NCBI GenBank assembly: GCA_035524895.1
Contig: DATLFI010000265.1
Location: 1,026-65,025, forward strand
Reading direction: 5' to 3'
DNA: 64,000 nucleotides
DNA from: Thermoanaerobaculia bacterium
Lineage (GTDB): Bacteria; Acidobacteriota; Thermoanaerobaculia; Multivoradales; Multivoraceae
Numbering within the stretch: the first letter of the stretch is position 1; every line of letters starts with the position of its first letter. The notes under the pieces were generated by a model, which searched no databases, was not told the DNA's origin, and saw only the letters and a list, made by a program, of their open reading frames with translations. Both the position numbers and the translations under genes were made by a program. Positions 10,111-58,291 of this stretch are shown piece by piece.

Positions 10111-10266
10111 GTCCACAGCCTCCCCAGGCAGCTTCCTCGAGATCGCATGTCGAGGTCCGAAGGTCGAGCCGGTGGCGCGACACGGGCGCGGCCCGCTCCA
10201 TTGTAGGCGGCGCGGCGGGCCTACGTCGGGCCGACACGCCGGCGATGCTGCGACCGGTTGTAAGAT

Positions 10267-10551: not shown

Positions 10552-10580
10552 CACTCCAGCCCTCACGCGAGGAGGTCAGC

Positions 10581-11678: not shown

Positions 11679-11696
11679 ACCCGCCTCCGGCGAATA

Positions 11697-12842
11697 TTGC
11701 CGGCCGACAGGTCCTCGACCGAGCGGGGCAGGCCCGTGAGTCGTACCGAAGCACCTTCCTACCGCGCCTCGCTGGCGGAGTACGAGCTTCGGGCGGAGGC
11801 CCTGCTCGAGGACCTGCATGCCGGAGACGGCGCCGCGGCACAACGGTTCAAGTGGGAGCACCCGCGGTACCGCGACCAGCCGCTGCGCGCCGTGGATCCC
11901 GCGGAGCTCGGCCTCGATGACGCGCGGCTGGTCGTGGCGCACGAGCATGCGTTCGAGGATTGGCAGGATCTCGCACGGTTCACGGATGCGGTGCAAGCTG
12001 GCGGACCGGTCGAACGCTTCGAGCGCGCGGTCGAGTCGGTGGTCGCGGGGGACTTGGCGACCTTGCGAAGGATGCTGCACGAGCAACCAGAGCTCGTGCG
12101 GGCGCGCTCGACGCGGCGGCACCACGCGACGCTGCTGCACTACCTCGGCGCGAACGGCGTCGAGGGCGCACGGCAGTGCACGCCGCCGAACGCGGTCGAC
12201 CTCGCGAAGCTGCTGTTGAACGCCGGCGCCGAGGTCGACGCGCTGGCGGACATGTACGACGAGAGGTGCACGACCCTCAGCATGCTGGTGTCGAGCTCGC
12301 CTCCGGCGCAGGCGGGCTTGCAGGGAGCGCTCGCGGAGCTGCTCCTCGATCACGGCGCCGCGCTCGACGGCCCTGGCTCGAAGTGGCAGTCCGCGATCCT
12401 CACCGCTCTCTTGTTCGGGTTCCTCGACACGGCCCAGGTGCTGGCACGCAGAGGAGTGCGGGTGGACGACCTCGTGACGGCGGCTGGCCTCGGCCGGCGC
12501 AAGGACGCAGCCCGGCTGCTGCCGGATGCCGGCGGCGAGAGCCGCCACGCGGCGCTCGCGCTCGCGGCGCAGCTCGGTCACTTGGATGTGGTGGCGCTGC
12601 TCCTCGATGCGGGAGAGGACCCCAGCCGCTACAACCCCGAAGGCCACCACGCCCACGCGACGCCGCTGCACCAAGCCGTCTGGGCCGGACATCAGAGCGT
12701 CGTGCGCCTGCTCGTGGAGCGGGGAGCGCGGCTCGACATCCGCGACACGATCTTCGACGCCACGCCGCTCGACTGGGCGAGCTATGGTCAGCGGACAGAG
12801 ATCGCTGAGCTCTTGCGCCAGCTCGGCGCGCCGGAGCACTGA
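11697..12842 (+). CDS. Ankyrin-repeat protein (cytoplasmic)
   Basis: At least 5 ankyrin repeats, e.g. ATPLHQAVWAGHQSVVRLLVERGARLDIRD and HAALALAAQLGHLDVVALLLDAGEDP. There is no signal peptide. GTG 11736 is an alternative start. Confidence 0.65.
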   Translation: MPADRSSTERGRPVSRTEAPSYRASLAEYELRAEALLEDLHAGDGAAAQRFKWEHPRYRDQPLRAVDPAELGLDDARLVVAHEHAFEDWQDLARFTDAVQAGGPVERFERAVESVVAGDLATLRRMLHEQPELVRARSTRRHHATLLHYLGANGVEGARQCTPPNAVDLAKLLLNAGAEVDALADMYDERCTTLSMLVSSSPPAQAGLQGALAELLLDHGAALDGPGSKWQSAILTALLFGFLDTAQVLARRGVRVDDLVTAAGLGRRKDAARLLPDAGGESRHAALALAAQLGHLDVVALLLDAGEDPSRYNPEGHHAHATPLHQAVWAGHQSVVRLLVERGARLDIRDTIFDATPLDWASYGQRTEIAELLRQLGAPEH

Positions 12843-12972
12843 CAGTGTCGCGGGTAGTGGGTCAACGGACCCACTACCGTGTCGCGGGCTCGATCGGCCA
12901 CTTGGTAGGCTGCACACAAAGCGCTCCTGGTGGAGCGGCCTCGGGGCGTTGTCCCACGAGAGGGGGTGCCGG

Positions 12973-13845
12973 ATGCGACGTGAACGTCTTTGCCATCAGC
13001 GTGACTTGGTCGGGCGCTCCTTGGCGATCCGGTTCTCGAGAACATCGGCAGGGCTGGCGGCCGCGATAGCGTGCGCAGCGCTCGCGATCTCCTCCGCTTC
13101 GTTCGCGCGGCAGCCACCAGCGACGGCCACCAACGACGGGATCGCGTCGCAGCACCAGGCGATGTCGTTTCGCGCCACCGTGACCCAAGAGCTCCAGCTC
13201 GAGTACCTGTTGGCCCTGCCGAAGGGCTACGCCGAGGGCGGCGAGCGCTGGCCGCTGGTGCTCTTTCTCCACGGCGCCGGTGAGCGTGGCAGCGACCTCG
13301 CGAAGGTGGAGATCCACGGGCCGCCGAAGCTGATCGCCGCGGGGCAGCAGATCCCCGCGATCGTCGTCTCGCCGCAGTGTCCGGCGAACGAGTGGTGGAC
13401 CGCGGACACGCACCTGCTGGCGCTCGAGCGCCTGCTCGACGAGATCGTCGCGAAGTACCGCGTCGACGAGGATCGCATCTACCTCACGGGCATCTCGATG
13501 GGCGGCTACGGCACGTGGGCGCTGGCTGCGCGCCAGCCGGAGCGCTTCGCCGCGGCGGCGCCCATCTGCGGCGGCGGTAACGCGCTGCCGGCGGGGCGCC
13601 AGCTCCGCAACCTGCCGATCTGGGCCTTCCACGGGGACGCCGACCCGGTGGTGCCGGTGGCCGAGTCGCAGCGGATGGTCGATGCGGTCCGGCGCGCCGG
13701 CGGCACACTGGCGAAGATCACGATCTATCCCGGGGTCGGGCACGACTCGTGGACCCAGGCCTACGAGGACCCGGCGCTCTGGGAGTGGCTGTTCGCACAG
13801 CGTCGCAAGCAGACCGGCACACCCGCTGCGGGTGTCCGCCCTTGA
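12973..13845 (+). CDS. Secreted alpha/beta-hydrolase esterase (phospholipase/carboxylesterase / predicted-peptidase family)
   Basis: ATG at 12973: MRRERLCHQ...AAAIACAALAISSASFA signal peptide. Motifs LVLFLHGAGERGSD, nucleophile GISMGGYGTW and WAFHGDADPVVPV (Asp/His) are present. The track ORF starting at 12526 overlaps the ankyrin gene out of frame and is a spurious extension. Confidence 0.65.
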   Translation: MRRERLCHQRDLVGRSLAIRFSRTSAGLAAAIACAALAISSASFARQPPATATNDGIASQHQAMSFRATVTQELQLEYLLALPKGYAEGGERWPLVLFLHGAGERGSDLAKVEIHGPPKLIAAGQQIPAIVVSPQCPANEWWTADTHLLALERLLDEIVAKYRVDEDRIYLTGISMGGYGTWALAARQPERFAAAAPICGGGNALPAGRQLRNLPIWAFHGDADPVVPVAESQRMVDAVRRAGGTLAKITIYPGVGHDSWTQAYEDPALWEWLFAQRRKQTGTPAAGVRP

Positions 13846-13846
13846 T

Positions 13847-13894
13847 CAGGTCCCTGACTAGGTCCCTGAGTAGGTCTCTGACTAGGTCCCTGAC
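13847..13894. repeat. 12-bp direct tandem repeat x4 (TAGGTCCCTGAC-like) immediately after the esterase stop; each unit has TAG and TGA in two frames
   Basis: Sequence reads tcAGGTCCCTGAC TAGGTCCCTGAG TAGGTCTCTGAC TAGGTCCCTGAC TAGcgc. It is a perfect-period direct repeat with no inverted symmetry. Confidence 0.8.
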
Positions 13895-13912
13895 TAGCGC
13901 AGGATCTCGCGC

Positions 13913-14146
13913 GTGATCCTCGCCGCCATCGCACTCCTGGTCCTTGGCGTGGCTCTCGTCGGCTACGTCGCGAGGCAGGTGTACGGCTCTCTTCCCGGGG
14001 GAACTGTCGCGGGTCTGGGACACCTCTACCGTGGCGCGAACTTCTGGCTCGTGCTCGCCGGCATGATCGCGATCGCGGGGGGCCTCGCGCTCCTCATCGA
14101 CCTGTTGCCCGCGAGCTGGCAGTTCTGGCTGGGCGGCGCCGACTAG
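13913..14146 (+). CDS. Small (77 aa) two-TM membrane protein
   Basis: GTG start; ILAAIALLVLGVALVGYV and FWLVLAGMIAIAGGLALLIDLL are hydrophobic helices. Its stop TAG (14144-14146) is the first 3 nt of the CTAGGAGCCC repeat terminus. Confidence 0.4.
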   Translation: MILAAIALLVLGVALVGYVARQVYGSLPGGTVAGLGHLYRGANFWLVLAGMIAIAGGLALLIDLLPASWQFWLGGAD

Positions 14147-14372
14147 GAGCCCGCAAACCCCCCCCCGCGCCCCAAGGGGTTGGGGCGGCGTGGGGCCGTC
14201 TGCGTTGTTGCGCTCGCGAAGCGTGTGACCCAGCATCGCCACCGCTCCCGCGCCAACGCCGAGCCGCCGGTAGAGCCGCTGCAGGCGAAAGACCTTCCCC
14301 GCGCACCGCAGATGCATCCGGCCCCACGGCGCTCCCAACGCAGCCCACGGGGGTTCCACCACGGGCTCCTAG
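14143..14372. repeat. Second long copy of the MITE/REP-like element: termini CTAGGAGCCCG ... GGGTTCCACCACGGGCTCCTAG; core ~85-90 % identical to 10389-10551 with indels
   Basis: The core motifs are shared with copy 1. The left end is shortened to CTAGGAGCCCG. A ~60-bp insertion lies relative to copy 1 before the right terminus. Confidence 0.7.
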
Positions 14373-14466
14373 CGCCGGGCCGCACGCGGGCCGCTCCCCG
14401 AAGCTTTCATCCCGACGTCCGAATTCCGCCAGAAACCGAGGTCCGGCCGGGTCTACACTGCTCGCC

Positions 14467-16035
14467 ATGAGAACGCGGGCCATCCTTGGACGGCGGACGG
14501 AAGGCGACGAGTGGACCGAGCCAGAGCTGCGGCGGCTGGAGCGAGCGCGGCTGGCTCGCGACCCACGCTTCGACGGCACCTTTTTCATCGCAGTCGTCAC
14601 CACCGGGATCTACTGCCGCCCGGTGTGCCCGGCGACGCCGCCGAAGCCGGAGAACGTGCGCTACTACCGTTCTGCCGCAGGGGCTGCGGCCGCGGGCTTC
14701 AGGCCCTGTCTGCGCTGCCGCCCCGAGGCCTCGCCCGGCACGCCGGCATGGCTCGGCACCTCGGCTACCGTGTCGCGGGCGCTGCGGCTGATCGACGAAG
14801 GCGCTCTCGACGAGGATCGCGGCGAGCGCGACGACGGCCGGCGTCCCACCGAAGGGCTGGCGAACCGGCTCGGTCTCGGCGAGCGGCACCTGCGCCGCCT
14901 GTTCGATCGACACTTGGGCGCGTCGCCGGCGGCCGTGGCGCGCACGCGACGGGTGCATTTTGCGCGGCGTCTGCTCGAGGAGACTCCGCTGAAGATCGCG
15001 GACGTCGCCTTCGCATCGGGCTTCGGCAGCCTCCGCGCGTTCAACGAGGCGTTTCGAGCTGCCTATGGCGTCGCACCGCGGCAGGTGCGCACCCGTCGGT
15101 CCGGTGCGGGGCCGGCGCCGGCGTTCACGTTCCGGCTCGGCTATCGGCCACCAGGCGATTGGCCAGGGCTGCTCGGCTATCTCGAGCCGCGCACCATGCC
15201 CGGCGTCGAGACAGTCGAGGATGGCGCCTACCGGCGATTGATTCGCTGGCAGGGTTCGGCTGCAGTGCTGGAAGTCGCACCGGCTCCCGGCGGCAAGGGT
15301 GGCGCCCTCCAGACTCTGGAGCTTCGCCTGCACGCCGCGCGCCCAGGCGAGCCACCTTCTGCGAATCGGCTGCTGGAGCTGGTGACTCGAGTGAGGCGCA
15401 TGTTCGACCTCGGCGCGGATCCCGACGTGGTCGCGCGGACGCTGCGAGCGGATCCGCTGCTCGCGGCCAGGGTTCGCCGCTTTCCCGGAGTCCGGCTGCC
15501 GGTCGCGTGGGATCCGTTCGAGCTGGCGGTGCGCGCGATCCTCGGCCAGCAGGTCTCGGTCGCCGCGGCGACGACGCTCGCGGGTCGGCTCGTCGAGCGC
15601 TTCGGGGAGCCGGTGCCATCGAGCGATGGCGGCGTCGCGAGCGACGCATTGCACACGCTCTTCCCGACGCCGGCGCGCCTGGCCGAGGAGGACCTCGCCG
15701 TGATCGGTTTACCGCGCGCGCGCGCCGAAGCGCTGCGCGGGCTGGCGCGCGCGGTCGCCGACGGCGTGCCGGTGCTCGATGCCGGCAAGCCGCTCGACGA
15801 GCTGATCGGCGGGTTGTGCGAGCTGCCCGGCATCGGCCCTTGGACCGCGCACTATGTCGCGCTGCGCGGCCTGGGCGTGCCCGACGCGTTCCCGGCCGGC
15901 GATCTCGGCTTGCGGCGCGCGTTGCGTCGCGACTCCGGTTCGCTGCCGAGCGCCGCCGACGTTGCGTCGCGCGCCGAGGCTTGGCGGCCCTGGCGCGGGT
16001 ACGGCGCGCTGCTGTTGTGGCGGGAGGCGGCTTGA
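14467..16035 (+). CDS. alkA: AdaA-AlkA fusion: Ada Zn-binding (methylphosphotriester-repair/sensor) domain + AraC-type HTH + AlkA N-domain + HhH-GPD DNA-3-methyladenine glycosylase II
   Basis: Ada_Zn motif FFIAVVTTGIYCRPVCPATPPKPENVRYY...FRPCLRCRPE. AraC HTH ETPLKIADVAFASGFGSLRAFNEAFRAAYG. HhH-GPD segment WDPFELAVRAILGQQVSVAAATTLAGRLVERFGE...GIGPWTAHYVALRGLGVPDAFPAGD. Confidence 0.75.
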   Translation: MRTRAILGRRTEGDEWTEPELRRLERARLARDPRFDGTFFIAVVTTGIYCRPVCPATPPKPENVRYYRSAAGAAAAGFRPCLRCRPEASPGTPAWLGTSATVSRALRLIDEGALDEDRGERDDGRRPTEGLANRLGLGERHLRRLFDRHLGASPAAVARTRRVHFARRLLEETPLKIADVAFASGFGSLRAFNEAFRAAYGVAPRQVRTRRSGAGPAPAFTFRLGYRPPGDWPGLLGYLEPRTMPGVETVEDGAYRRLIRWQGSAAVLEVAPAPGGKGGALQTLELRLHAARPGEPPSANRLLELVTRVRRMFDLGADPDVVARTLRADPLLAARVRRFPGVRLPVAWDPFELAVRAILGQQVSVAAATTLAGRLVERFGEPVPSSDGGVASDALHTLFPTPARLAEEDLAVIGLPRARAEALRGLARAVADGVPVLDAGKPLDELIGGLCELPGIGPWTAHYVALRGLGVPDAFPAGDLGLRRALRRDSGSLPSAADVASRAEAWRPWRGYGALLLWREAA

Positions 16036-16100
16036 GCGACTCTCGGCGGGCTGCCGAGGGCGGGCTCCGAAAGTGGCAGAGATCTTCATCGGAGGACACC

Positions 16101-16613
16101 ATGCACCATCGAATCATCGACTCACCCATCGGTCCCCTGACTCTCGTCGGCGAAGGGGAGCGCCTGCTCGCGATCCACCTGCCGAAGCTGGGTCGAGCCG
16201 TGCCGCCGCCGCCCGATGCGGCGCTGGACGGCGGCGCGCTGGACGAAGCGGCGCGCCAACTCGGCGAGTTCTTCGCAGGTCGCCGGCGCGCGTTCGAGCT
16301 CGATCTCGATCCCCGAGGATCGGAGTTCCAACGACGCGTGTGGTTCGAGCTCGCCGAGATCGGCTACGGCGAGACGATCTCGTACGCCGAGCTGGCGCGA
16401 CGGGTCGGGCGTCCCGGCGCGGCGCGCGCGGTGGGCGCGGCGAACGGCCGCAACCCGCTGCCGATCGTGCTGCCGTGCCATCGAGTGATCGGCAGCGACG
16501 GGTCGCTGGTCGGATACGGCGGGGGATTGCCGGCGAAGCGCGTGCTGCTCGAGCTCGAGGGCGCGACCGCCGCGAAGGCTCCGGCGCAGTCGCGGCTGTC
16601 GCTGGCGTCCTGA
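16101..16613 (+). CDS. ogt: Methylated-DNA--protein-cysteine methyltransferase
   Basis: GGAGG RBS lies 7 nt upstream of ATG 16101. The active-site PCHRV motif is present in IVLPCHRVIGSDGSLVGYGGGL. It sits 65 nt downstream of adaA-alkA. The 700-aa track ORF 14511..16613 is spurious except for this tail. Confidence 0.85.
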   Translation: MHHRIIDSPIGPLTLVGEGERLLAIHLPKLGRAVPPPPDAALDGGALDEAARQLGEFFAGRRRAFELDLDPRGSEFQRRVWFELAEIGYGETISYAELARRVGRPGAARAVGAANGRNPLPIVLPCHRVIGSDGSLVGYGGGLPAKRVLLELEGATAAKAPAQSRLSLAS

Positions 16614-44170: not shown

Positions 44171-46161
44171 GCTCTCCCGCCGCGCGCGTCGGACCCCCAA
44201 AGGCGACTCGACGGCGGCGCATCCTCCTGCTCGCGGTCGGGACCGTCGTGGCACTCGAGCTGCTCTACCTGGTCGCGGCGCAGGTCTTTCTCTGGAGCCC
44301 ATGGGGCCCCCATCGGATCAACCGTCGTCCCGAGAGGCTCCTGGTGTCGTGGGAGTCCGCTGTCTCGCCGCTGCCCGGCCTCGTCCGCCTTCGCGACGCC
44401 GAGATCCGTGGCCAGAATCGCAAGAGCCAGTGGCTCGTGCGAGTGGATTCTGCGTGGGTCTGGGTCGATCTGGTCCAGCTGCCGAGGCGCGTGTTCCATA
44501 CCTGGTCGCTGCGCGCGCACGGCGCTGAGTTCTGGCTGCGCGAGAACAGCTTCGATCCCGACGCCGAGCCTTCGGAATCGGAGGCCTTCCCGCCCATCCC
44601 GGGTCTCGAGCTGCCGACCACCACGCCACTCGAGCGCCTGGTTCCGAGGCATCCCAACCGACGTCCCTGGCGCCTGAGCTTCGGCGGCCTGAGGGTGCGC
44701 GAGCTCCGCGACCTCTGGCTCGGTCGCTATCGGCTGTGCGCTGCGAGCGCGGTCGACGGCCGGCTCGACTTCGCCATCCGCGGAGAGCTCGAGAGTCGGG
44801 GCATCCGGCTGCGCATCGAAGAGGGCACGCTCCTGGACGGAAGAGAGACTCCGGTTGCCACCGGCCTGTTCGTCGATGCACGGCTGCGGGTCGATCCCTT
44901 CGATCCTGGCGACACACCGCCTGCGGAGATCTTCGAGAGGCTCGACGGCTCGGTCGGCGTGCGGGCTCACATCGGGAGCCTGGGCTTCCTCGATCCGTTC
45001 CTCCCGCGAACCGAGTGGCTCGATCTCGAGGCCGAGGGCGGCCTCCAAGCCCAGCTCGAGCTCGAGCGCGGCCAGATCCAACCGGGCACGGCTTTCCGCG
45101 TCGAGGCTCGACCCCTGGTCGCGACCGTGGCGGGTCATCGCGTGCAGGGGACCGGGCTCGTCGACGGTGAGCTCGGAGCCGCAGCCGCACCGGGCGGAGT
45201 CTCGGCCGGAGCCTCGGCCGGAGCCTCGGCGGGGGCCTCGGCCGGAGCCTCGGCGGGTCGTGTCGACCTGCGGTTCGAGGACTTCACGGTGCACACACCG
45301 AGCGGTCGCGAGCTGGCACGCGGCGACGGCTTCGCGATCGCGCTGCTCACGGATCAGCTCGCCATCGGCAAGCCCACCGACGTGCGCGCGACGATCGACC
45401 TCCCCAGCTCGGAGGTACGCGACCTGGGCGCGTTCGACGAGTACCTCCCGGCTCCGGCCGGCCTCGACCTGAAGAGCGGCAGCGGCAGGCTCGGGCTGCA
45501 CCTCGAGGTGGACCATGCCTCCCGCTCGGGCCATGGGCGCATCGAGGCGAGCGTCGACGACGCCGTGGGCGAGTTCGGCGGCACCGGCTTCCGTGGCGAC
45601 CTCGTGCTGACGGCCGAGCTCGACGAGATCGACACCACCGCGCGCAGCCTCACGGTGGCGCCGGCGGTCCTGCGGCTGGACGAGGTCGCCCTCGATCCCG
45701 GGGGTGGCGATACCGACTGGACGCGCGTTGCGGGCGACTGGTGGGGTGAGCTGGAGCTGGCGCGCGGCCGCTTCGACTTCGCCGACGGCTGGCGCGCCCG
45801 CGGCGACATCGCGCTGCACCTCAAGGACAACCTGCCGGTGCTGGCGGTGTTCGTCGAGCGCAAGGCCTTCCTCGCGTGGTTCCACGGCTTGCTCGAGGCG
45901 CAGGACATCAGGGGGTCGGCGAAGATCGACGTCGCGAAACGGCACCTGCGGATCGAGGACCTCGCGATCGAGTCCGACCACATCCAGATCGCCGGCGACC
46001 TGTTGATGAGCGAGCCGAAGCGCAAGGAAGGCCTCCTCTTCGCGAAGTTCCGCGCGCTCTCCGTGGCTGTGGAGCTGTTCCCGGACGGTGAGCGCGACTG
46101 GAAGCTGACCCGCTCCCGGCGCTGGTTCGAAGCGCGGCGCGCCGAGCGGAAGGCGAGGTGA
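44167..46161 (+). CDS. N-terminally membrane-anchored hypothetical protein (AsmA/TamB-like?) containing a (SAGA)x5 low-complexity insert; translationally coupled to the PQQ dehydrogenase
   Basis: MSSPAARVGPPKATRRRRILLLAVGTVVALELLYLVAAQVFLW is an N-terminal TM helix. ~660 aa of non-junk sequence follows. The ATGA overlap is with the upstream gene. The 1347-aa track ORF 42118..46161 is the out-of-frame read-through of this frame. Confidence 0.4.
   Translation: MSSPAARVGPPKATRRRRILLLAVGTVVALELLYLVAAQVFLWSPWGPHRINRRPERLLVSWESAVSPLPGLVRLRDAEIRGQNRKSQWLVRVDSAWVWVDLVQLPRRVFHTWSLRAHGAEFWLRENSFDPDAEPSESEAFPPIPGLELPTTTPLERLVPRHPNRRPWRLSFGGLRVRELRDLWLGRYRLCAASAVDGRLDFAIRGELESRGIRLRIEEGTLLDGRETPVATGLFVDARLRVDPFDPGDTPPAEIFERLDGSVGVRAHIGSLGFLDPFLPRTEWLDLEAEGGLQAQLELERGQIQPGTAFRVEARPLVATVAGHRVQGTGLVDGELGAAAAPGGVSAGASAGASAGASAGASAGRVDLRFEDFTVHTPSGRELARGDGFAIALLTDQLAIGKPTDVRATIDLPSSEVRDLGAFDEYLPAPAGLDLKSGSGRLGLHLEVDHASRSGHGRIEASVDDAVGEFGGTGFRGDLVLTAELDEIDTTARSLTVAPAVLRLDEVALDPGGGDTDWTRVAGDWWGELELARGRFDFADGWRARGDIALHLKDNLPVLAVFVERKAFLAWFHGLLEAQDIRGSAKIDVAKRHLRIEDLAIESDHIQIAGDLLMSEPKRKEGLLFAKFRALSVAVELFPDGERDWKLTRSRRWFEARRAERKAR
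45198..45257 (+). repeat. 12-bp tandem repeat x5 (GCCTCGGCCGGA-like) encoding SAGASAGASAGASAGASAG
   Basis: It is in-frame inside the 44167-46161 gene. Confidence 0.8.
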
Positions 46162-46335
46162 TCGTCCCGGAGGGGGAGCGGCTCCTCTTCGCGTGACGAG
46201 CTTCTCGTCTTCGCCACCCCTGGCGGGACCCGCTTTCCAACGGCCTCGCGAGGGCTACGGCGGCGGCTCCGTCGCCGACCACGTTTCGACATCGCGCGTC
46301 ACGCCGCGTTCACGGCGTCCGCGGCGTCCAGCGTC

Positions 46336-47019
46336 GTGGCTGGCCAGAGCCGGCCGGACCTCTTCCGGTGCGAGGGCTGCGAGGCCATCCACGAGAACTC
46401 CTTCGAGGGCCTGGGATCGAGCACCACGATCCCGCCCGCCGGCGAGCCTGGCGAGCGCATGGTCCTGCGCGGCCGCGTGCTCGAGCCCGACGGTGAGACG
46501 CCTGCCGCCAGCGTCGTGGTCTACGCGTACCACACCAACGCCGCGGGCGTGTACCCGCGCCGTGGTGACGAACGCGGCTGGGACCGACGGCATGGCTACC
46601 TGCGCGGCTGGGTGCTCGAGCCCGACGGTGAGACGCCTGCCGCCGGCGTCGTGGTCTACGCGTACCACACCAACGCCGCGGGCGTGTACCCGCGCCGTGG
46701 TGACGAACGCGGCTGGGACCGACAGCATGGCTACCTGCGCGGCTGGGTGAAGACCGACGGCTCCGGCGAGTATCGGTTCGAGACCATCCGTCCCGCGCCG
46801 TACCCTGGCGGGAGAGCGGCCGCGCACATCCACCTCACCGTCAAGGAGCCAGACCGCAAGGAGTACTGGATCGACGATGTGGTCTTCACCGACGATCCGG
46901 CGGTGACCGCCGCCTACCGAGCCCGTCAGCAGGACCGTGGCGGCTCCGGCATCGTCACACCCGAGCGCGGCGCCGAGGGCACCTGGCAGGTCCGTCGGGA
47001 CATCGTCCTCGAGCCCTAG
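46336..47019 (+). CDS. Intradiol ring-cleavage dioxygenase-like protein carrying an internal 45-aa tandem duplication
   Basis: C-terminal YRFETIRPAPYPGGRAAAHIHLTVKEPDRKEYWIDDVVFTDDP is an intradiol dioxygenase signature. GTG start. The stop TAG lies inside the palindrome at 47016. Confidence 0.6.
   Translation: MAGQSRPDLFRCEGCEAIHENSFEGLGSSTTIPPAGEPGERMVLRGRVLEPDGETPAASVVVYAYHTNAAGVYPRRGDERGWDRRHGYLRGWVLEPDGETPAAGVVVYAYHTNAAGVYPRRGDERGWDRQHGYLRGWVKTDGSGEYRFETIRPAPYPGGRAAAHIHLTVKEPDRKEYWIDDVVFTDDPAVTAAYRARQQDRGGSGIVTPERGAEGTWQVRRDIVLEP
46477..46746 (+). repeat. 135-bp direct tandem duplication x2 (2 mismatches), in-frame within the dioxygenase-like CDS
   Basis: Units 46477-46611 and 46612-46746 both encode VLEPDGETPAA(S/G)VVVYAYHTNAAGVYPRRGDERGWDR(R/Q)HGYLRGW. 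Confidence 0.85.
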
Positions 47020-47037
47020 GAGCCCACGGGCTCCTAG
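47016..47037. repeat. Short form of the CTAG-bounded element: near-perfect 22-bp palindrome CTAGGAGCCC-ac-GGGCTCCTAG
   Basis: 10-bp perfect arms. The first TAG is the stop codon of the dioxygenase-like gene. Confidence 0.7.
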
Positions 47038-47081
47038 CCGAGCTTGGTCGCTGGACGCGCGGCGTATGCTTCGCCCCGCGC

Positions 47082-47699
47082 ATGATCCCGGCACGCGAAG
47101 CACTCGAGCGACTGCGCGCGGGCAACCGTCGCTTCGTCTCGTCCATCACCGACAACGGGGCGGCGATACCCGCTCCGCGACGCGCCGAGCTGGTGCAGGA
47201 GCAGCGACCGTTCGCGATCGTGCTCGGCTGCTCGGACTCGCGCGTGCCCGCCGAGATCGTCTTCGATCAGGGCCTCGGTGACCTCTTCGTGATCCGGGTC
47301 GCCGGCAACGTCGTGGCGTCTTCGCAGATCGGCAGCGTGGAATTCTGCGCCTCGCGCTTCGGCACCCGGCTGGTGGTGGTGCTGGGACACTCGCAATGCG
47401 GCGCCGTGCTCGCGACCATCGAGGAGCTGCAGCGGCCCGCGGAGAGCCAATCGCGCCACCTCCGCTCGATCGTCGACCGGGTGCGACCCTCGGTCGAGGC
47501 GCTGCTCGAGACCGAGCTCCGCCACGATCCGGAGGAGCTGGTGCGCCGTGCCGTGCGTGCCAATGTCGCGGTGTCGGTGAATCACCTGCGATACGGCTCG
47601 GAGGTCCTGGAGCAGCTCATCCAGAACGAGGGTCTGGTCGTCGTGGGAGCCGAGTACTCGCTCGAGACGGGCGTGGTCGAGCTCTTGGAGGACGAGTAG
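47082..47699 (+). CDS. Beta-class carbonic anhydrase
   Basis: CSDSRV ... HSQCG zinc-ligand motifs are present (AIVLGCSDSRVPAEIVF, VVVLGHSQCGAV). Confidence 0.8.
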   Translation: MIPAREALERLRAGNRRFVSSITDNGAAIPAPRRAELVQEQRPFAIVLGCSDSRVPAEIVFDQGLGDLFVIRVAGNVVASSQIGSVEFCASRFGTRLVVVLGHSQCGAVLATIEELQRPAESQSRHLRSIVDRVRPSVEALLETELRHDPEELVRRAVRANVAVSVNHLRYGSEVLEQLIQNEGLVVVGAEYSLETGVVELLEDE

Positions 47700-47816
47700 C
47701 CGACTGGGACCCGATACGCGGCAGGGTACGAGTCTCGATGATCAGGAGGTCGACGTGAAGGAAGCAGTGTAGCGACACGACCGGCCGTGAAGCGGCGCGC
47801 GCGCGGCGGCGAGCGA

Positions 47817-48890
47817 TCAGCCGCCGGTCGTCTCCCTGCCTCGCAGCTTGCCGCCTGGGGCTCCGACCATCAGCTTCACCAGCTCCTCGGTCACATTCGG
47901 TTCGAGGCCTTCGGTGTGCCCCTTGTCGATGCGCACCACGTCGGCGACCACGCGACCGCCGGCGCAGCTCGGATAGCTCGTGACGTGAGCCGTGCCGGGT
48001 CGTGGAAGCCTGCCCCAAGCGGGAGTCGGCGGGTCCTGTCGCCGGGTGTCGAAGACGTACCCAGCCTTGGTATCGACCACCTCTCGTGGCTCGCTCTGCG
48101 GGCCGCACTGGTACTTCTCGGCCCATTCGGATTTCTCCGGCAGGCCCTTCTCGTCCATCTCGAGCTGGCCGGTGGTGAAGACGAACGAGAAGTCGCAGGT
48201 CGGCTCGACGATCTGGAACGAAGGACGCGGCGCATCGGCGGTCGCAGCGCCGCCGGCAGGGCGGGTGGGGCGGAAGCCGAAGTCGACCCGTCCCGGCGAT
48301 CCGCCGAGGCGACCGCCCGAGAGACTCAGGAAGCCGTCGACCTTGTCCGCGAAGAAGTCGCTGCACACGATGCGGCGCGAGGTCATGCCGCCTTGCGAGT
48401 GCCCGGCAAGCCAGAACGCCTTCACGTTCTCCTTGCCGATCCGTTCGAGGACCGAGTCCACGATGTCGCGCAGGTACGGGTCGTCGACGTCGGTCCACAC
48501 CTGCGTCGGCGAGCTCGGCGTAGCGACGACCAGGCGGTACTGGTCGACGAAGTCGAGGATCGGGAAGTAGTGGCGCTGCCAGTTCGCGTACGAGCCGCCG
48601 CCGTGGAGGCTGAGCACGAAGGTGACCTCCTCCCCGGGCTTCAGATCGCACGGGTAGTCGAGGAAGTAGGTGCGCCGGCTGTTCATCTCGACTTCCGGAC
48701 CAGGGTTGATGACACGGTCCCCGGTGCAGTCCTGGTCGGGACAGTGGAGAAAGGCGGGCCGAGTGCAGGGTGTTCGCGAGAGCTGGAGCGTCTCCCCGGC
48801 GGTCTCCTGGGGAAACACCTGGCCGGCGGAGGCCAGCAGCCACAGCGTTCCCAAGAGCGGCAGCACGCGAATCGTCGTCTTTCTCTTCAT
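47817..48890 (-). CDS. Secreted alpha/beta-hydrolase esterase (PHB-depolymerase/LpqC-like)
   Basis: Signal peptide [28 protein letters not shown]. The nucleophile elbow is AGHSQGG, with LSLHGGG nearby. Confidence 0.6.
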
Positions 48891-48903
48891 GACGTTCTCC
48901 TTG

Positions 48904-50622
48904 TCAGGCCGGCGAGGACGGTTGCGGGCGTGGCGTCTCGCTGCGCCCCAGGATCTCGCGCACGGGCGCCATGTAGTCGTCGACGATCGCGGGCTCGGTG
49001 TCGAAGACCATGGTCGCCCGGCGCTTCGTGTCGTACTCCGGCCAGGGGAGCTCCGGTGTGCTCGGGTTGCCGGTGCGCGCGAACGCGACCCAGGCCCCGC
49101 TCGTGAGCTGCTCGAGCCGCCGGGTCTCCGGCGCGTCGCCCAGCAGGATGGGTCCCTTGTCGACGTTGTGGAAGACGAAGGGGATCTCGATCGTATGCGG
49201 CGCCCGCAGGATGCCTTTGTCGACCGGCGCGTGCCAGCGGTACACCCAGAGGTAGGCCGGTGTCGGCTGTGCGCTCTTGCGCTCGCCGAGGCGGACAGAC
49301 CCGCCGAACACGCGCGCCGAAGTCACGTCGGTGTAGAGATAGCGCGGGGGGTCGTCCGGACGCAGCTCCCGGAACGCGGCGAGCAGCGCTTCAGCTTGCT
49401 CGCCGGGCAGCTCCGCGACACGCGCGACGAGCCCCTCGTCGGTGAGGTCGCGCCACCACGCGTGGCCGCAGTTGTAGAGCGTCTGCTCGTCCTGGGTGCA
49501 GCCGACCATGACCGGCACGCCCGCTGCCAGCGGCGACGCCTCCGGATCGAACGGGTGGTGGGCGATGTCCTCGCCGTCCATCACCGGGCCGTATCTCCTG
49601 CTCGCCTTGGCCGCTGCCGCGAGCAGGTTCTCCGCAGGGACCTGCTGCAGCGCTGCGACGTCGGTCCTCGAGAGGCCGAGCTCGGCGAGCAGCTTCTCGG
49701 CGGTCGCCGCCGAGGCTTCGGGATCGCCGCTGCGCAGCGCCGAGCCGCTCTGGATGCTCGCCTTGTGGAAGAGCCCGCGGGCGGCTGGCGTTGCGAGCAG
49801 GTTGCAGACCTTGGCGCCGCCTCCCGACTGCCCGAAGATGGTGACGTTGCCGGGGTCGCCACCGAAGGCCGCGATGTTGTCGCGCACCCACTCGAGCGAC
49901 GCCACGAGGTCGAGATGCCCGGCGTTCGCGGAGCGGGCATAGGCCTCGCCGCCGAGCGACGCCAGGTCGAGGTAGCCGAACGCGTTGAGCCGATGGTTCA
50001 CGGTCACCACGACGACGTCGTAGTGCAGCGCCAGGTTGTGGCCGTCGTAGGCCGGCCAGCTCCCGGAGCCGTAGTTGAAGCCGCCGCCGTGGAGCCACAC
50101 CAGCACCGGGCGATCTCTGCCGTCGCCGAGCCCCTTGGACCAGACGTTGAGAGCCAGGCAATCCTCGTGCTGGCGCAGGACGTCCTCGCGGCTCCCAAAG
50201 ACCTGCCCCAGCGCCGGTCCGACGTTGCCCGGGTAGCCGACGGCCGAGCCGCCGCTGGCAAGCTGCATCGCCGAGTGTGCGTAGCGCATGGTGTCCGCGA
50301 CGCCGGTCCACGGCTCGGGTCGGCGCGGCGGCATGAAGCGGAGCGAGCCCACCGGCGGCGCGCCGTAGCGCACCCCGAGGTAGGAGTGGACGCCGTCCTC
50401 GGTGAGCCCGCGCACGGGGCCGTTCGTGGTCTTCACCACGGGGCTCACTTGATCCGGCAGGGCGAACCCTCGCGGCGCGAACGCTGCGCCGAGCGTTGCG
50501 GTCACTCCCACCTTGAGGAACGCGCGGCGATCGACGGCGCGCTGTCGGCAGAAGCTCTGTTGGAAGCTGTTTGGATCGATCATCGCACCTGCGACCTCCT
50601 CGAGGATCCGGCTCTCATGCAT
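48904..50622 (-). CDS. Type-B carboxylesterase (para-nitrobenzyl-esterase-like) with twin-arginine signal
   Basis: [18 protein letters not shown] Tat motif. [15 protein letters not shown], nucleophile GQSGGG and an E..H triad region are present. An alternative start at 50583 is possible. Confidence 0.8.
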
Positions 50623-50640
50623 CCTCTGCCGAAGGCTCCG

Positions 50641-51408
50641 TCACGCGCTGCCGCCCACTTCGCTGCCGCTGCCGTCGCCCAGCACGCGCGCCACGACCTC
50701 GGCTGGAAAGGCCTCGGCATGCACCCGGCGTCGAGTTTCTCGGTAGGGCCACTCGGTGCCGAGCGGGCGCCAGCCGTAGCCGTCCAGCAGGAGGGCCTGG
50801 GAGAGCTCGACCGCGAGCCGAGGGCTCGCGACTCCCGACTGCTCCAGCGGCGTGTCCGAGCGCATTAGATTCGAGGCGCCCCAGCGGCCCGCCCACAGCA
50901 CGAACAGCAGGTCCTCGGGGCAGAGCGGAGAGGGTAGGCGGAGGTCGCCCGCGGCGATTGCCTCGCGGATCACGCTGGTGCCGAAGCTGACGGCGCGCAC
51001 GTCGAGCACCTTGAGATCGTCCTGGCGCTCGCGGCTGGTCTTGGCGCGCAGCGATGTCGAGGCAACGAACAGCTCCACCGGCAGGTCGCGCGGGGCCAGC
51101 AGCCCTTCGACCTCGCCGATCGCGAGCATCTTCTCGCGCGGTCGTCCGCGGAAGAGTACCGCCCGCTCGCAGAGCCTGACGCGGCGCGTCTTGCTCTGGA
51201 TCGCCAGCGCCAGGAGGATCTCTTCCTTGCAGGGGAAGTGCTTGTAGACCAGCGGCCGCGAGCAGCCCATCCGCTCCGCGATGAGCTCGATGCCGAAGCC
51301 GTCCCAACCCAGCTCCAGGAACGCCTCGCGCGCGATGCAGAGGATCTGCTGGGTCCGAGAAGCCGGAGCTTCGAACGTGCTGACTTGCTCGAGCGGGGAC
51401 GCGCACAT
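50641..51408 (-). CDS. TetR/AcrR-family transcriptional regulator
   Basis: The HTH is GFGIELIAERMGCSRPLVYKHFPCKEEIL. The start is at MCASPLEQ (CAT 51406-51408) with GGGGAGGG RBS. It lies 18 nt upstream of the carboxylesterase gene on the same strand. Confidence 0.7.
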   Translation of the reverse strand: MCASPLEQVSTFEAPASRTQQILCIAREAFLELGWDGFGIELIAERMGCSRPLVYKHFPCKEEILLALAIQSKTRRVRLCERAVLFRGRPREKMLAIGEVEGLLAPRDLPVELFVASTSLRAKTSRERQDDLKVLDVRAVSFGTSVIREAIAAGDLRLPSPLCPEDLLFVLWAGRWGASNLMRSDTPLEQSGVASPRLAVELSQALLLDGYGWRPLGTEWPYRETRRRVHAEAFPAEVVARVLGDGSGSEVGGSA

Positions 51409-51434
51409 GCTGCCCTCCCCGAAGGGGATTACCC

Positions 51435-51442
51435 GTCTAGAC
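51435..51442. promoter_or_regulatory. Perfect 8-bp palindrome GTCTAGAC 27 nt upstream of the TetR start; candidate operator. A TTGACA -35-like hexamer lies at 51493-51488 on the minus strand
   Basis: Read directly. Location is in the TetR 5' region. Confidence 0.25.
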
Positions 51443-51577
51443 ACTCGCGAGGTTGGAAAGGTTTACCCTGTCGCGATGGTGACGAGTTGTCAAGTCCTGA
51501 AAACGGGAGCCAACAGGGACGAAGCTCGAAGCAGATCGGCGATCCGAGTCTGGTGAGTGACAGATTGCCACCGTCGG

Positions 51578-51593
51578 CCCACGGGCTCCTAGG
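51578..51593. repeat. Half-site copy of the CTAG-bounded element (CCCACGGGCTCCTAGG) overlapping the stop codon (CTA = TAG on minus) of the M50-like gene
   Basis: It matches the right arm of the 47016 palindrome, including the flanking CCGAG. Confidence 0.55.
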
Positions 51594-52515
51594 CCGAGGG
51601 GAAGATGCGCGACCGATTCACCGCGACGAGGTGCGCGGCGAGCGGCGTCGCGAGCACCGTCAGGCAGAAGAGCACCGCGACCACGCCCAGGTCGACGCCG
51701 AGGAAGTCGTCGGCAAGGCGGCTCAGGTCCATCCAGTGACCGCCTCCCTTTGCTTGCTCGTAGGTGCGGCGGAAGGCGGCGCTCGCGAGGAGCTGCCAGC
51801 CGAAGAGGGCGTCGCTCGCGAGGACGAAGGCCGCGCAGGCTGCGTAGGTGCCGCGCTCGACGGGAGGCCAGTGCACCGGCGCCAAAGCGCGGTAGAGGCA
51901 CACCCCGGCGAGCAGGAGCTCGGCGCCGTGGCCGGCCGCCAGGACCAATGCATCGTGGAGCGGTGAAACCGTCGCGACCAGGTAGATCGCCCCGAGCGCG
52001 CCGGCAGGCCAGCGGGCGCGCGTGTTGCGCAGGTGCCACGCGAGCCAGGCCACTGCGACTGCGGCGAGGTATGCCAGCGGGGTCGAGCGCCCGAAGTGGA
52101 TCGACACGCCGCCGCCGTAGGCGAAGTCGAAGACTGGGATCGTCGGGTACCCGAACGCCCATCCCATCGCGGTGTGTCCGAGCTCGTGGAAGACCACGAG
52201 CGCGTAGGAGAGCGCGTAGCGCGTGAAGGGCAGGATCCACCAGCACAGACCCACTACGAGCCCGACGCCGACGGCGCGGCGATCGAGGCGGGTTGTCTCA
52301 GCCACCACGTCGCCGCGCAGCGGCGCGCGCGGGCTCCGCGGCCGGCGTAGTCCGGCCGACACGACGAGTGCCTTCTCCAGGATCACGCCGCAGGCTGGAC
52401 ACTCTTCGGCACTGCCGATCGCGACGCCGCCCGGGATGGGCGTCGCGAGCGGCGCGGTGCACTTCGGGCACTCGGTTACCGGGGCCTCGGGCTCGGGGCG
52501 GTACAGGGATCTCAT
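51589..52515 (-). CDS. Membrane zinc-metalloprotease-like protein (HExxH in a TM helix, M50/S2P-like) with N-terminal CxxC...CxxC zinc ribbon
   Basis: N-terminal CPKCTAPL...CPACGVIL. The TM-embedded motif is LVVFHELGHTAMGWAFGYP. Start MRSLYRPEP (CAT 52513-52515). Confidence 0.45.
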   Translation of the reverse strand: MRSLYRPEPEAPVTECPKCTAPLATPIPGGVAIGSAEECPACGVILEKALVVSAGLRRPRSPRAPLRGDVVAETTRLDRRAVGVGLVVGLCWWILPFTRYALSYALVVFHELGHTAMGWAFGYPTIPVFDFAYGGGVSIHFGRSTPLAYLAAVAVAWLAWHLRNTRARWPAGALGAIYLVATVSPLHDALVLAAGHGAELLLAGVCLYRALAPVHWPPVERGTYAACAAFVLASDALFGWQLLASAAFRRTYEQAKGGGHWMDLSRLADDFLGVDLGVVAVLFCLTVLATPLAAHLVAVNRSRIFPSA

Positions 52516-52630
52516 GCCGGGCGTAGCCTTGGACGATGCGGAGCCCGTCCGTCGGGCACTTCCTTCGACGAGAGAACTTATCCGGTGGAGCGCCGTACCC
52601 ACCGTCGATTCGCCTCCGCGGAGATTCCCC

Positions 52631-54049
52631 ATGCCCGAGGGCAGAGAAGCAACGACGATGTTCGTGAACCGGCAGCGCCGGTGCGGCGCTTCGACGTTGG
52701 AGGCGCTGGGCCTGATCGCGGTGGCGATGTTGGATCCGGCGGCGCTGCTGGCGTCGTCCGAGGCGTTCGCGCTGCGCGGCGCGACGGTGCTGCCGATGAA
52801 CGGCGCGGCTTCTCAGCCGCGGCAGACCGTGCTCGTGCGCGAGGGACGGATCGAAGCTGTCGGCCCGGCCGGCGTGGTCGAGATCCCGGATGGGACGCGG
52901 ATCGTCGATGTGGCCGGCAAGTTCGTGCTCCCCGGTCTCGCCGACCTGCACGTCCACATCAAGCGACCCAACGCCGATGTCGAACGGCTGCTGGCGCTCT
53001 TCCTACGACACGGCGTGACGACGGTGCTCAGCCTCGACGGAGGACCCACCGTGCTTTCTCTCCGTGGGAAGATCGAATCCGGCTCGCGGCTCGGGCCACG
53101 TGTGTTCACGACGGGTCCGATCATTCGGGGCTCGGACACCATGACCCGCGAGGACGGCGAGAGGATCGCGCGCGAGCAGGTCGCTGCGGGCTACGACTTG
53201 CTGAAGGTCTACAACCAGATCTCTGCCGACGGCTACGCGGGGCTCGTCGCCGAGGCGAAGGGGGCACGCGTACCGGTGATCGGGCACGCGGTGCGCTCGG
53301 TGGGCATCGACGGCGCGCTTGCGAACGGCCAGCACATCGCGCACATGGAGGAGCTGGTCTACGGCTACTTCACCTGGAAGTCGAATGAGCGCGAAGACCT
53401 CCCCGAGGACGTGGTGGACCGTCTCGACCTGCTGCTGGATCCCGTCAAGGTTCCCGACCTCGCGCGCCGCGTCGCCGAGGCGGGGGTCTTCGTGATCCCC
53501 AACCTCACCGCCTACCATCACATCCTGCTCCAGGTCGAGGATCTCGACCGCGTGTTGGCGCGGCCCGAGGTTGCACTGATGCCTCGGCTCATGACGCAGT
53601 CGTGGGTGCGAGAGAAGAACGGCTACACCAACCGCGAGGATCCCGAACGGTTCCGTCGTGGTCTCGGCCGGACGTTTCCGTTCCTGCAGCAGCTCACCGC
53701 CGCGTTCCAGTCCGCCGGAGTGCCGCTGTTGCTGGGTACCGACGTCGGCATTCCGGTGATCGTCGCCGGCACGTCTGTGCACGACGAGCTCGAGGAGCTG
53801 GTGGCCGCCGGTTTGACCCCCGAGCAAGCCCTCGCGACCGCCACCCGCAACCCTGCGCGCTTCCTGGGCCTCGCCGACGGCGGCACCGTCGAGGTGGGGA
53901 AGCGAGCCGACCTGCTGCTCCTGGGCGCCGATCCGCTACTCGACATCCGCAACAGCCGGAGCATCGCGGGCGTCGTGGTCGCGGGCAGGTTCCTCGACGT
54001 CGAGGCGCTCGACGGGCTGCTCGCCGCGAGCGCGAGCCCGCCGCAGTAG
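52631..54049 (+). CDS. Amidohydrolase-family metal-dependent hydrolase (secreted)
   Basis: The beta-sandwich N-part is LVREGRIEAVGPAGVVEIPDGTRIVDVAGKFVLPGLADLHVHI (HxH metal site). The C-terminal segment is DVGIPVIVAGTSVHDELEELVAAGLTPEQAL. In-frame ATG 52667 is an alternative start. Confidence 0.65.
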   Translation: MPEGREATTMFVNRQRRCGASTLEALGLIAVAMLDPAALLASSEAFALRGATVLPMNGAASQPRQTVLVREGRIEAVGPAGVVEIPDGTRIVDVAGKFVLPGLADLHVHIKRPNADVERLLALFLRHGVTTVLSLDGGPTVLSLRGKIESGSRLGPRVFTTGPIIRGSDTMTREDGERIAREQVAAGYDLLKVYNQISADGYAGLVAEAKGARVPVIGHAVRSVGIDGALANGQHIAHMEELVYGYFTWKSNEREDLPEDVVDRLDLLLDPVKVPDLARRVAEAGVFVIPNLTAYHHILLQVEDLDRVLARPEVALMPRLMTQSWVREKNGYTNREDPERFRRGLGRTFPFLQQLTAAFQSAGVPLLLGTDVGIPVIVAGTSVHDELEELVAAGLTPEQALATATRNPARFLGLADGGTVEVGKRADLLLLGADPLLDIRNSRSIAGVVVAGRFLDVEALDGLLAASASPPQ

Positions 54050-56766: not shown

Positions 56767-58133
56767 CAGCCGCGGGTCTCCGGTTCGACGATGCGAAGCG
56801 GCGGCGTCGTGCGCCAGCGACCACGCGTGAAGTCGGGCACGTCGACGGTGCGGCTGCGCGAGGCCACCGAGCGTTCGGTGAGCTCCGCGATCGCGCTCCA
56901 GGACGCCGCGTCGTAGACGTTTTGGTCGGTAGGCCAGCCGTTTCGGAGACAGACCACCAGACGCCAGTCCTCCAGGAAATCCATGCCGCCGTGGCCCAAG
57001 GTGGCGCTGCGCGAGCGCTCCCAGCGCCATAGCGGGTGCTCGTGCTGCTCGTACCAGCGGTCGAGCGGCTCCCATGCGTGCTCGCCCGGAGTCGAGCCCT
57101 CGACGTGGATGCGGTCGGGCCAGCCCTGCATCAGGCCGCGGGTGCCCTGGAGCATGCCGATGCGGCTGTAGGGACGCGGGAGGTTGGTGTCGTGCACCAG
57201 GTAGATGGTCTGCCCGCGCACGGTCTGCAGCAAGGTGACGTTGACGTCACCGAGCACGTAGCGCTCCTCCCGCCGCGGATCGTCGGCGGCGAGGTGCTCC
57301 TGCTGCCAGAGCTGCAGCCCCCGCGAGGGCGAGCTCATCGAGACCAGGAAGTCGAGCTGGTTGCCGCGGTTGATGTCGAGACACTGCGCGATCGGGCCCA
57401 GCCCGTGCGTGGGGTAGAGGTTGCCGTTGCGGCGCATCGAGTGCGCTCGCCGCCACAGCCCCTCGCCCTTTGTCGAGAACTTGATGCCGCGAAGGTCGTG
57501 GGAGTAGGCGCACTCGGCGTGGAGCAGCTCGCCGAACACCCCCTGCCGCACGAGGTTCAGCATCAGCGACTCGCGCCGGTCGTAGCAGCAGTTCTCCATC
57601 ATCACGCAGTGCCGCGCTCGCCGCTCTGCGGTCTCGACGAGCTGCCAGCACTCGTCGACGGTGACCGCGGCTGGTACCTCGGTCGCGGCGTGCTTGCCGT
57701 GCTCCATCGCCGCCACGCACACCGGCACGTGCCACTCCCAGGGCGTGGCGGTGAACACCAGGTCGACGTCCTGTTCGGCGCACAGTCGCTCGAAGTCGCG
57801 CGGTCCGCGGTCGTAGCCGAGAGGCTGAGGCTGTCCGGCTTCGACCACACGCTGCTGCGCGCGCGCGACCTTCTCGGGCACGATGTCGCACACCGCGCGG
57901 ATCTCGACGCCCTCGATCGACAGGAAGTTCTCGAGGTGCACCGAGCCCATGCCGCCGATGCCGACCATTCCGAGGCGCACGCGCTCGAGCGGGGGAGCGG
58001 CGAGGAGTGTCGTCTCGGAGGCGAGCGCGGCCGGCGCTGGGACACCGGCACCGCGAACCTGCTGCCCGATCGCGGAGGCGCCGAGCGCGGCAGCGGCGGT
58101 CTGGAGGAGCTCGCGACGAGTCCGCTCGTTCAT
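56766..58133 (-). CDS. Tat-secreted Gfo/Idh/MocA-fold NAD-dependent enzyme, GH109-like (alpha-N-acetylgalactosaminidase-type glycosidase/oxidoreductase)
   Basis: MNERTRRELLQTAAAALGASA Tat signal. Rossmann RLGMVGIGGMGSVHL. The long C-terminal domain is typical of GH109. Confidence 0.55.
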   Translation of the reverse strand: MNERTRRELLQTAAAALGASAIGQQVRGAGVPAPAALASETTLLAAPPLERVRLGMVGIGGMGSVHLENFLSIEGVEIRAVCDIVPEKVARAQQRVVEAGQPQPLGYDRGPRDFERLCAEQDVDLVFTATPWEWHVPVCVAAMEHGKHAATEVPAAVTVDECWQLVETAERRARHCVMMENCCYDRRESLMLNLVRQGVFGELLHAECAYSHDLRGIKFSTKGEGLWRRAHSMRRNGNLYPTHGLGPIAQCLDINRGNQLDFLVSMSSPSRGLQLWQQEHLAADDPRREERYVLGDVNVTLLQTVRGQTIYLVHDTNLPRPYSRIGMLQGTRGLMQGWPDRIHVEGSTPGEHAWEPLDRWYEQHEHPLWRWERSRSATLGHGGMDFLEDWRLVVCLRNGWPTDQNVYDAASWSAIAELTERSVASRSRTVDVPDFTRGRWRTTPPLRIVEPETRG

Positions 58134-58291
58134 GGGTGAGGGGATTGCTGGTCGGCGATTCGCCGGGGTGCGAGCGAGTGTACCCTCAGTCCGAGGGCGG
58201 GCTGGGGCTAGGATTCTTGGTGCCAGCGGAGCTTGCCAAGAAGCCGCTCGCCGAGCTGCCTCGCCTCGAGCTCCACTGCCAGGAGCCAGCC

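Follow-up and report, generated by a model that had tools for sequence, protein, structure and literature searches.

An apparently recent in-frame 135-bp tandem duplication in a 5′-truncated, probably decaying gene of the intradiol dioxygenase family

SACTE_2871 of Streptomyces sp. SirexAA-E (PDB 4ILT/4ILV) belongs to a clade of domain-only, mostly signal-peptide-bearing proteins that were described as 'extracellular intradiol dioxygenases' in a 2025 study, and it is the only bacterial member of this clade that has been characterised (PMC12420386). It is also the best structural match for the modelled product of the gene considered here (Foldseek E 1e-10, TM 0.75 on target), which lies in a 64-kb stretch of DNA; this whole stretch, as analysed, will be referred to as the window. 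Both are small single-domain Dioxygenase_C proteins with a 2-His/2-Tyr iron site, in our case a predicted one, and both have relatives with signal peptides. The two differ, however, in several respects. Sequence identity amounts to ~15-17%, the family of the window protein carries an extra N-terminal CEGCE segment, and the window gene, whose product is known from sequence alone, has no signal peptide and contains a 45-residue repeat. A second point of comparison is provided by PcaH and the catechol 1,2-dioxygenases. The ligands Tyr408, Tyr447, His460 and His462 of 2pcd_M align with residues of the window protein, which is nevertheless much shorter, lacks the dimerisation or helical domains and is not accompanied by a neighbouring alpha subunit gene. 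Engineered or natural partial tandem repeats within a domain are known to fold with one copy looped out, as in the tandem-repeat insertions of T4 lysozyme. Comparably, AlphaFold2 gives the sandwich of the window protein with residues 54-95 or 80-132 extruded, although here the loop-out is a prediction that follows the input alignment.

The microhomology-mediated route has been reported to be dominant among tandem duplications in bacteria, and the definition and detection logic for microhomology-mediated tandem duplications (MTDs), with microhomology at the breakpoints, have been laid out (bioRxiv 10.64898/2026.02.28.708716; PMC8639346). As in an MTD, a single-copy segment with a flanking pair of short homologies has become a 2x tandem array at our locus, the microhomology being GTG inside a 16-mer with 14/16 matches; in contrast to de novo subclonal events, the duplication is the fixed consensus in one assembled genome and carries two later substitutions. 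Both the mutational class and the protein superfamily represented by the locus are known, and no new system or enzyme class is involved.

Two adjacent units of 135 bp each were identified on the forward strand (Table 1), which are identical at 133 of 135 positions by direct reading and by script, far beyond what chance would produce in adjacent segments. Tandem Repeats Finder reported an array at 46457-46749 with a period of 135, 2.2 copies, 96% matches and a score of 544. The leftward extension of this array to 46457 is due solely to the similarity between the left flank and the unit's end, and on the right the repeat runs three bases past unit 2 (GTG, 46747-46749). No other long-period tandem repeat was detected by the same program in the 64-kb window, the G+C content of which is 70%. 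The units begin on a codon boundary of the open reading frame (ORF) at 46336-47019, so that 45 codons are repeated in frame, encoding VLEPDGETPAA[S/G]VVVYAYHTNAAGVYPRRGDERGWDR[R/Q]HGYLRGW. The copies differ at 46510 (A) versus 46645 (G), resulting in Ser59/Gly104, and at 46589 (G) versus 46724 (A), resulting in Arg85/Gln130; each is a non-synonymous G↔A transition. The original prediction had described two near-identical 135-bp units with two differences that duplicate, in frame, the N-terminal strands of an intradiol-dioxygenase-like protein. Direct reading, Tandem Repeats Finder and the script confirmed the two units, the codon boundary and the 45 repeated residues confirmed the frame, and alignment to the protocatechuate 3,4-dioxygenase beta chain (chain positions ~84-129) places the unit at the first beta-strands of the dioxygenase sandwich. 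The family label was borne out as well by the match to Pfam Dioxygenase_C (E 9e-16).

Table 1: Positions of the features of the duplicated gene and its surroundings in the window.
Feature	Start	End	Strand	Description
Filler	46162	46315	+	About 155 bp without L001 counterpart, in place of ~9.7 kb
Signal-peptide remnant	46316	46335	+	Last 6-7 codons (..AASSVV); homology to L001/L002 resumes; right breakpoint of the deletion
Dioxygenase ORF	46336	47019	+	227 codons; GTG start as annotated in HUP24185.1
Left arm of the imperfect direct repeat	46464	46479	+	CCTGCGCGGCCGCGTG; ends in the GTG at the start of unit 1
Tandem unit 1	46477	46611	+	aa 48-92; Ser59, Tyr73 (iron-ligand equivalent), Arg85
Junction arm	46599	46614	+	CCTGCGCGGCTGGGTG; 14/16 identical to the left arm; new junction ...TGGGTG/CTCGAG
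Duplication junction sequence				...GGCTGGGTG/CTCGAGCCC
Tandem unit 2	46612	46746	+	aa 93-137; Gly104, Tyr118 (iron-ligand equivalent), Gln130
Right arm	46734	46749	+	CCTGCGCGGCTGGGTG; the repeat's original copy on the right; unique sequence AAGACC comes next
Single-copy part of the metal site	46801	46833	+	Tyr156 (46801-46803), His164 (46825-46827), His166 (46831-46833)
Beta-carbonic anhydrase gene	47082	47699	+	Pro_CA, 205 aa; downstream; syntenic with and of the same length as the L001 gene

The ORF is a minimal gene of the intradiol dioxygenase family and matches the mature part of secreted homologues of ~200 aa. Its score against Pfam Dioxygenase_C (PF00775) was 58.3 bits, with a gathering cut-off of 27.3, the match being split into two stretches because of the duplication; the single-copy orthologue P0002 scored 55.5 bits. 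An identical protein is deposited at NCBI as HUP24185.1, 'MAG TPA: intradiol ring-cleavage dioxygenase [Thermoanaerobaculia bacterium]', in a cluster with one member from one contig (70,221 bp). More than 2,200 homologues of 183-220 aa were found, mostly in metagenomes of Gemmatimonadota, Bacteroidota and Acidobacteriota, with a common layout consisting of a hydrophobic N-terminal signal-like segment, a QSRPDLY-CEGCEA motif and the dioxygenase core. Among solved structures, the best sequence match was the beta chain of protocatechuate 3,4-dioxygenase (2pcd_M, E 1e-8). Tyr408 of this chain aligns with the Tyr of 'AGVYP', which is present twice in the duplicated protein as Tyr73 and Tyr118, Tyr447 aligns with Tyr156, and His460/His462 align with His164/His166. 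These two Tyr and two His iron ligands are invariant across 117 aligned family members and correspond to the ligand set of intradiol enzymes. The window protein is accordingly predicted, from its sequence, to have an iron site of the intradiol (Fe3+) dioxygenase type. Membership in PcaH and CatA was ruled out by the NCBIfam cut-offs: the PcaH equivalog model (TIGR02422) gave 47.4 bits versus a cut-off of 296.4, and the catechol/chlorocatechol 1,2-dioxygenase models (TIGR02439, TIGR02438 and TIGR02465) gave 26-33 bits versus 359-404. The PcaG equivalog model was missed by a wide margin, too, and tblastn revealed no second Dioxygenase_C gene in the window that could serve as alpha-subunit partner. 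Since the equivalog cut-offs are missed, naming the protein 'protocatechuate 3,4-dioxygenase beta subunit', as the source does, is over-specific.

The duplication is private to this contig. All 116 of the closest homologues aligned with the window protein lack residues opposite one of the two copies. The two closest orthologues, P0003 from JGI contig Ga0645783_00340 and P0002 from Logan SRR34348018, have one copy each; both are 203 aa long, and their amino-acid identity, with the gap left out for P0003, is 92% and 90%, respectively. When the 45-aa unit was used as tblastn query, one match per locus was obtained in 162/162 related loci drawn from genome and metagenome contig collections, and two matches were obtained only in the window. 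The same unit was compared by phmmer with 1.84 billion representative proteins, a search chosen because two-copy proteins would rank at the top; no partial duplication was present among the 159 representative matches. Proteins matching in more than one stretch were confined to diverged whole-domain tandems (P0155, and P0173 with the same architecture), fusions of the YceI type (P0189 and P0123) and low-complexity noise. Likewise, the back-translated, degenerate junction pattern (GYLRGW/VLEPDG) was absent from genome_contigs and metagenome_contigs, and no other contig encoding the 227-aa product was retrieved by exact-protein look-up. The comparison with orthologues, which had been proposed together with the original prediction, thus yielded single-copy genes throughout, and concerted evolution, which had been offered as one way to explain the fidelity of the repeat, is unnecessary as no relative has two copies. 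As judged by eye, P0155 and P0173 represent a two-domain form of ~375 aa in which a diverged N-terminal dioxygenase-like domain is followed by a full domain of the CxWCG type, while in P0123 and P0189 (~385 aa) the family appears fused to a C-terminal region that looks YceI-like.

The unit begins and ends exactly at the imperfect direct repeat that matches best within the gene. Each of the three boundaries (46477, 46612 and 46747) carries GTG, and the exact microhomology comprises these 3 bp only, the longer arm being imperfect. In the de-duplicated window, a match of at least 13/16 at an offset of 135 occurs at a fraction of 1.7e-4 of the positions, and across the gene, considering offsets of 30-399, only this pair of arms and one pair at offset 393 reach at least 13/16. 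The imperfect pair is already present in the single-copy genes of the related loci L001 and L002, where the arms encode strand segments that resemble each other, (V)LRGRV and (Y)LRGWV. We propose that the nascent strand was copied through CCTGCGCGGCTGGGTG (46599-46614 in present coordinates), slipped back by 135 nt onto the similar CCTGCGCGGCCGCGTG (46464-46479) and that the intervening 135 nt were then copied again, which would generate the in-frame repeat of 45 codons. As predicted by such a slippage model, the junction keeps the sequence of the right arm and continues with the start of the unit. The features that define an MTD are found here, namely a change from a 1x to a 2x array, a microhomology arm of at least 1 bp and a single-copy ancestral state. 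Judged from its product, the duplication was almost certainly made by slippage between short look-alike repeats.

To polarise substitutions, L001 was used as outgroup to the window and L002 over the 540-nt mature region. The window lineage has acquired 14-15 specific substitutions, of which 9 are synonymous and 5-6 non-synonymous. Five of the lineage-specific substitutions are located inside the unit (mature codons 50, 51, 67, 73 and 77) and are present in both copies, demonstrating that the duplication post-dates them and is young. With five shared lineage substitutions versus two copy-specific ones, the suggestion that the event was very recent is supported. By parsimony, Ser (AGC, as in L002) and Arg (CGG, as in all) are ancestral; both changes consequently occurred in copy 2, and unit 1 is identical to the sequence before duplication. 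The Ser/Gly site is variable across the family, whereas Gln130 occupies a position at which 115/116 homologues have Arg. Random mutations in the unit would be non-synonymous in ~74% of cases, compared with 5 of 14 substitutions that arose earlier on this lineage, and the observation that both post-duplication changes are non-synonymous is compatible with relaxed constraint, two substitutions being too few for a dN/dS test. Alternatively, the two differences could have been present from the start if the duplication resulted from unequal exchange between two alleles.

A second lesion was found upstream of the ORF. L001, a JGI contig, is collinear with the window at ~90% nucleotide identity: its positions 1-280 correspond to 45870-46149 of the window (the end of the upstream gene), 10042-10612 to 46316-47019 (the dioxygenase gene) and 10799-16208 to 47082-52583, and collinearity goes on beyond. 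However, ~9.7 kb of L001 (about 281/290-10041), encoding CLIPPER-domain, beta-lactamase, sigma-70, PadR, MacB-type permease, cytochrome P460 and RibD_C genes, is missing from the window. When the origin of the filler found in its place was searched for within the window and L001, only chance-level short matches were obtained. In L001 and L002 the gene starts with a Shine-Dalgarno-like site and a TTG codon, the L001 gene overlapping the RibD_C stop, and orthologues have a hydrophobic N-terminus of ~20 residues. Compared with the closest orthologues, the window gene lacks the Shine-Dalgarno site, the TTG start, ~14 signal-peptide codons and the hydrophobic core, and the ORF does not show the signal peptide expected of the SACTE_2871-like clade; the upstream operon partner is lost as well. 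As the N-terminal segment is present in all relatives, the state seen in the window is derived.

No in-frame ATG, GTG or TTG is found between the upstream stop (46159-46161) and 46336, and the filler provides neither such a codon nor a Shine-Dalgarno-like site for the dioxygenase ORF. The GTG at 46336, annotated as the start, is an ordinary Val codon inside the orthologous genes; as it precedes the mature N-terminus by two codons, translation from it could yield a cytoplasmic product. Initiation at a near-cognate ATC (46291) would produce MARHAAFTASAASSVVA followed by GQ, a weak signal-like peptide, but is unlikely. A consensus scan of 45900-47200 detected no sigma-70-like promoter and no intrinsic terminator. 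At the 3′ end, a perfect 10-nt inverted repeat (CTAGGAGCCC/GGGCTCCTAG, 47016-47037), its arms 2 nt apart, spans the TAG with which the dioxygenase gene stops; it has no T-run and was therefore not called a terminator. In L001 and L002 the stop is followed by other, longer sequence. A weak 9-bp repeat at 46296-46329 (GCGTCCGCG, 3.7 copies, score 38), in what is left of the signal-peptide region, coincides exactly with the right breakpoint of the deletion and may represent small slippage scars or chance in DNA of 70% G+C. Further downstream, 52583-54034 (~1.45 kb) and 56794-58162 (~1.37 kb) are not matched in L001, which is otherwise collinear.

Structure prediction was performed in both possible alignment registers. 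With the homologues placed on copy 2 (117 sequences), AlphaFold2 returned a confident sandwich with a mean pLDDT of 82.7 and residues 54-95 disordered or looped out. With 23 homologues placed on copy 1 (MAFFT; aligned to Arg85 and resuming at His131), the same sandwich was obtained with residues 80-132 disordered, now built from copy 1 and the last strand of copy 2. The top Foldseek matches of the model were 4ilt and 4ilv (E ~1e-10, TM 0.72-0.75 normalised on target), assigning it to this fold. The near-identity of the copies leaves the chain free to adopt any register, and since the AlphaFold2 register follows the input alignment, the models cannot tell which copy is used. According to these models, the fold can accommodate a loop-out of unit length at two alternative surface positions, and the protein, if translated, need not be destroyed by the duplication. 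The copy-1 register would keep the conserved Arg85 and put Gln130 in the loop.

On this basis we interpret the locus as a recent duplication generated by microhomology-mediated slippage in a 5′-truncated, probably decaying gene of a normally secreted minimal family, an interpretation to which we assign a probability of about 0.55. The upstream deletion of ~9.7 kb has removed the ribosome-binding site, the TTG start and most of the signal peptide. With these elements lost, proper expression or export of the gene product has most likely ceased. The gene would be at an early stage of decay, and relaxed constraint would have allowed the duplication to persist together with the Arg-to-Gln change in copy 2. 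At present the ORF contains no stop and no frameshift and keeps its in-frame GTG, while the Shine-Dalgarno site, the TTG start, ~14 codons and the operon partner are gone; as the ORF is open and the history of the lineage has been mostly purifying, any inactivation must be recent. The 'unusual repeat-expanded dioxygenase-like protein' envisaged in the original prediction is real as far as the duplicated sequence is concerned, but this description overlooks the 5′ truncation and the Gln at a position where 115/116 homologues have Arg. From the sequence, a decaying gene appears more likely than a new functional architecture. Nevertheless, the protein might still be made from GTG 46336 or ATC 46291 and work, with ~45 residues extruded as a surface loop, as a cytoplasmic or weakly exported product. 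The intact ORF, the retention of all four metal ligands, the overall purifying selection on the window lineage and the high confidence with which AlphaFold2 folds the predicted chain in two registers would all agree with this possibility, which we nonetheless consider doubtful. The Shine-Dalgarno site is missing, as are the upstream region, the operon partner and any canonical start codon followed by a signal peptide. A signal-like segment stands at the N-terminus of every close homologue, and a signal peptide is reported for 97% of the bacterial signal-only clade surrounding SACTE_2871 (PMC12420386). Moreover, the AlphaFold2 register equals the input alignment and is thus not independent support, and such an insertion occurs in no other family member. 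It is very unlikely that the gene is expressed without export signal and that the repeat with its second ligand Tyr gives a functional protein with new properties, be it an alternative-register fold, a domain-swapped oligomer or a step to circular permutation or repeat expansion.

The second group of explanations concerns the origin and age of the repeat itself. An assembly artefact, which had been considered together with the original prediction, would imply that the genome has a single unit and that the contig contains an uncollapsed overlap, mis-joined strain variants or chimeric library molecules. Indeed, the junction lies on a single contig of a single metagenome-assembled genome, and the AGC/GGC difference matches alleles of related lineages, as would be expected from the tandem placement of two strain variants. 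Unlike an arbitrary overlap, however, the endpoints fall exactly on the 14/16 direct repeat and the frame is kept. An imperfect match of this kind should be too short to branch a de Bruijn graph, and the k-mers of the junction would have to exist in the reads for a k-mer-graph assembler to build them. The longest exact stretch common to the copies is 78 bp, which reads of 100-150 nt can resolve, and the 64 kb contain no other such repeat. Furthermore, the flanking genes are full-length and collinear with L001, and, the neighbouring genes having the same length as in L001, the local assembly looks sound. An artefact is hence unlikely. An older duplication, held near-identical by gene conversion or selected as a reversible on/off switch, has still less to recommend it and can be given only a very slim chance. 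Tandem repeats of 135 bp can recombine or slip back, and microhomology-mediated duplications have been reported to revert often and to act as reversible mutations (PMC8639346). Yet none of the relatives is duplicated, including orthologues at 90-92% amino-acid identity, and no sign of population polymorphism was seen. All five lineage-specific substitutions are present in both copies, for which a young event is the simpler explanation.

If real, the recent duplication represents a clean natural case of an in-frame microhomology-mediated event soon after its origin, in which the ancestral state, the template repeat and the relative age can be read from the orthologues. In automatic annotation, this gene, truncated at its 5′ end and duplicated internally, passes for an intact 'intradiol ring-cleavage dioxygenase', and the practical use of the finding is one of caution in annotating metagenome-assembled genomes. 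It may also serve as a minor case study of how a beta-sandwich might bear an insertion of unit length, and if the functional reading were true, it would capture, in nature, a fold evolving through partial duplication within a domain.

Short-period repeats were observed elsewhere in the window. The upstream gene of ~650 aa, for which no Pfam match was obtained, contains a 12-bp repeat at 45191-45254 (CGGCCGGAGCCT, 5.3 copies, 88% matches) that encodes (GASA)n. A further 12-bp tandem repeat is located at 13848-13897 (AGGTCCCTGACT, 4.2 copies, 89% matches, score 86) and is unusually A+T-containing for the window.
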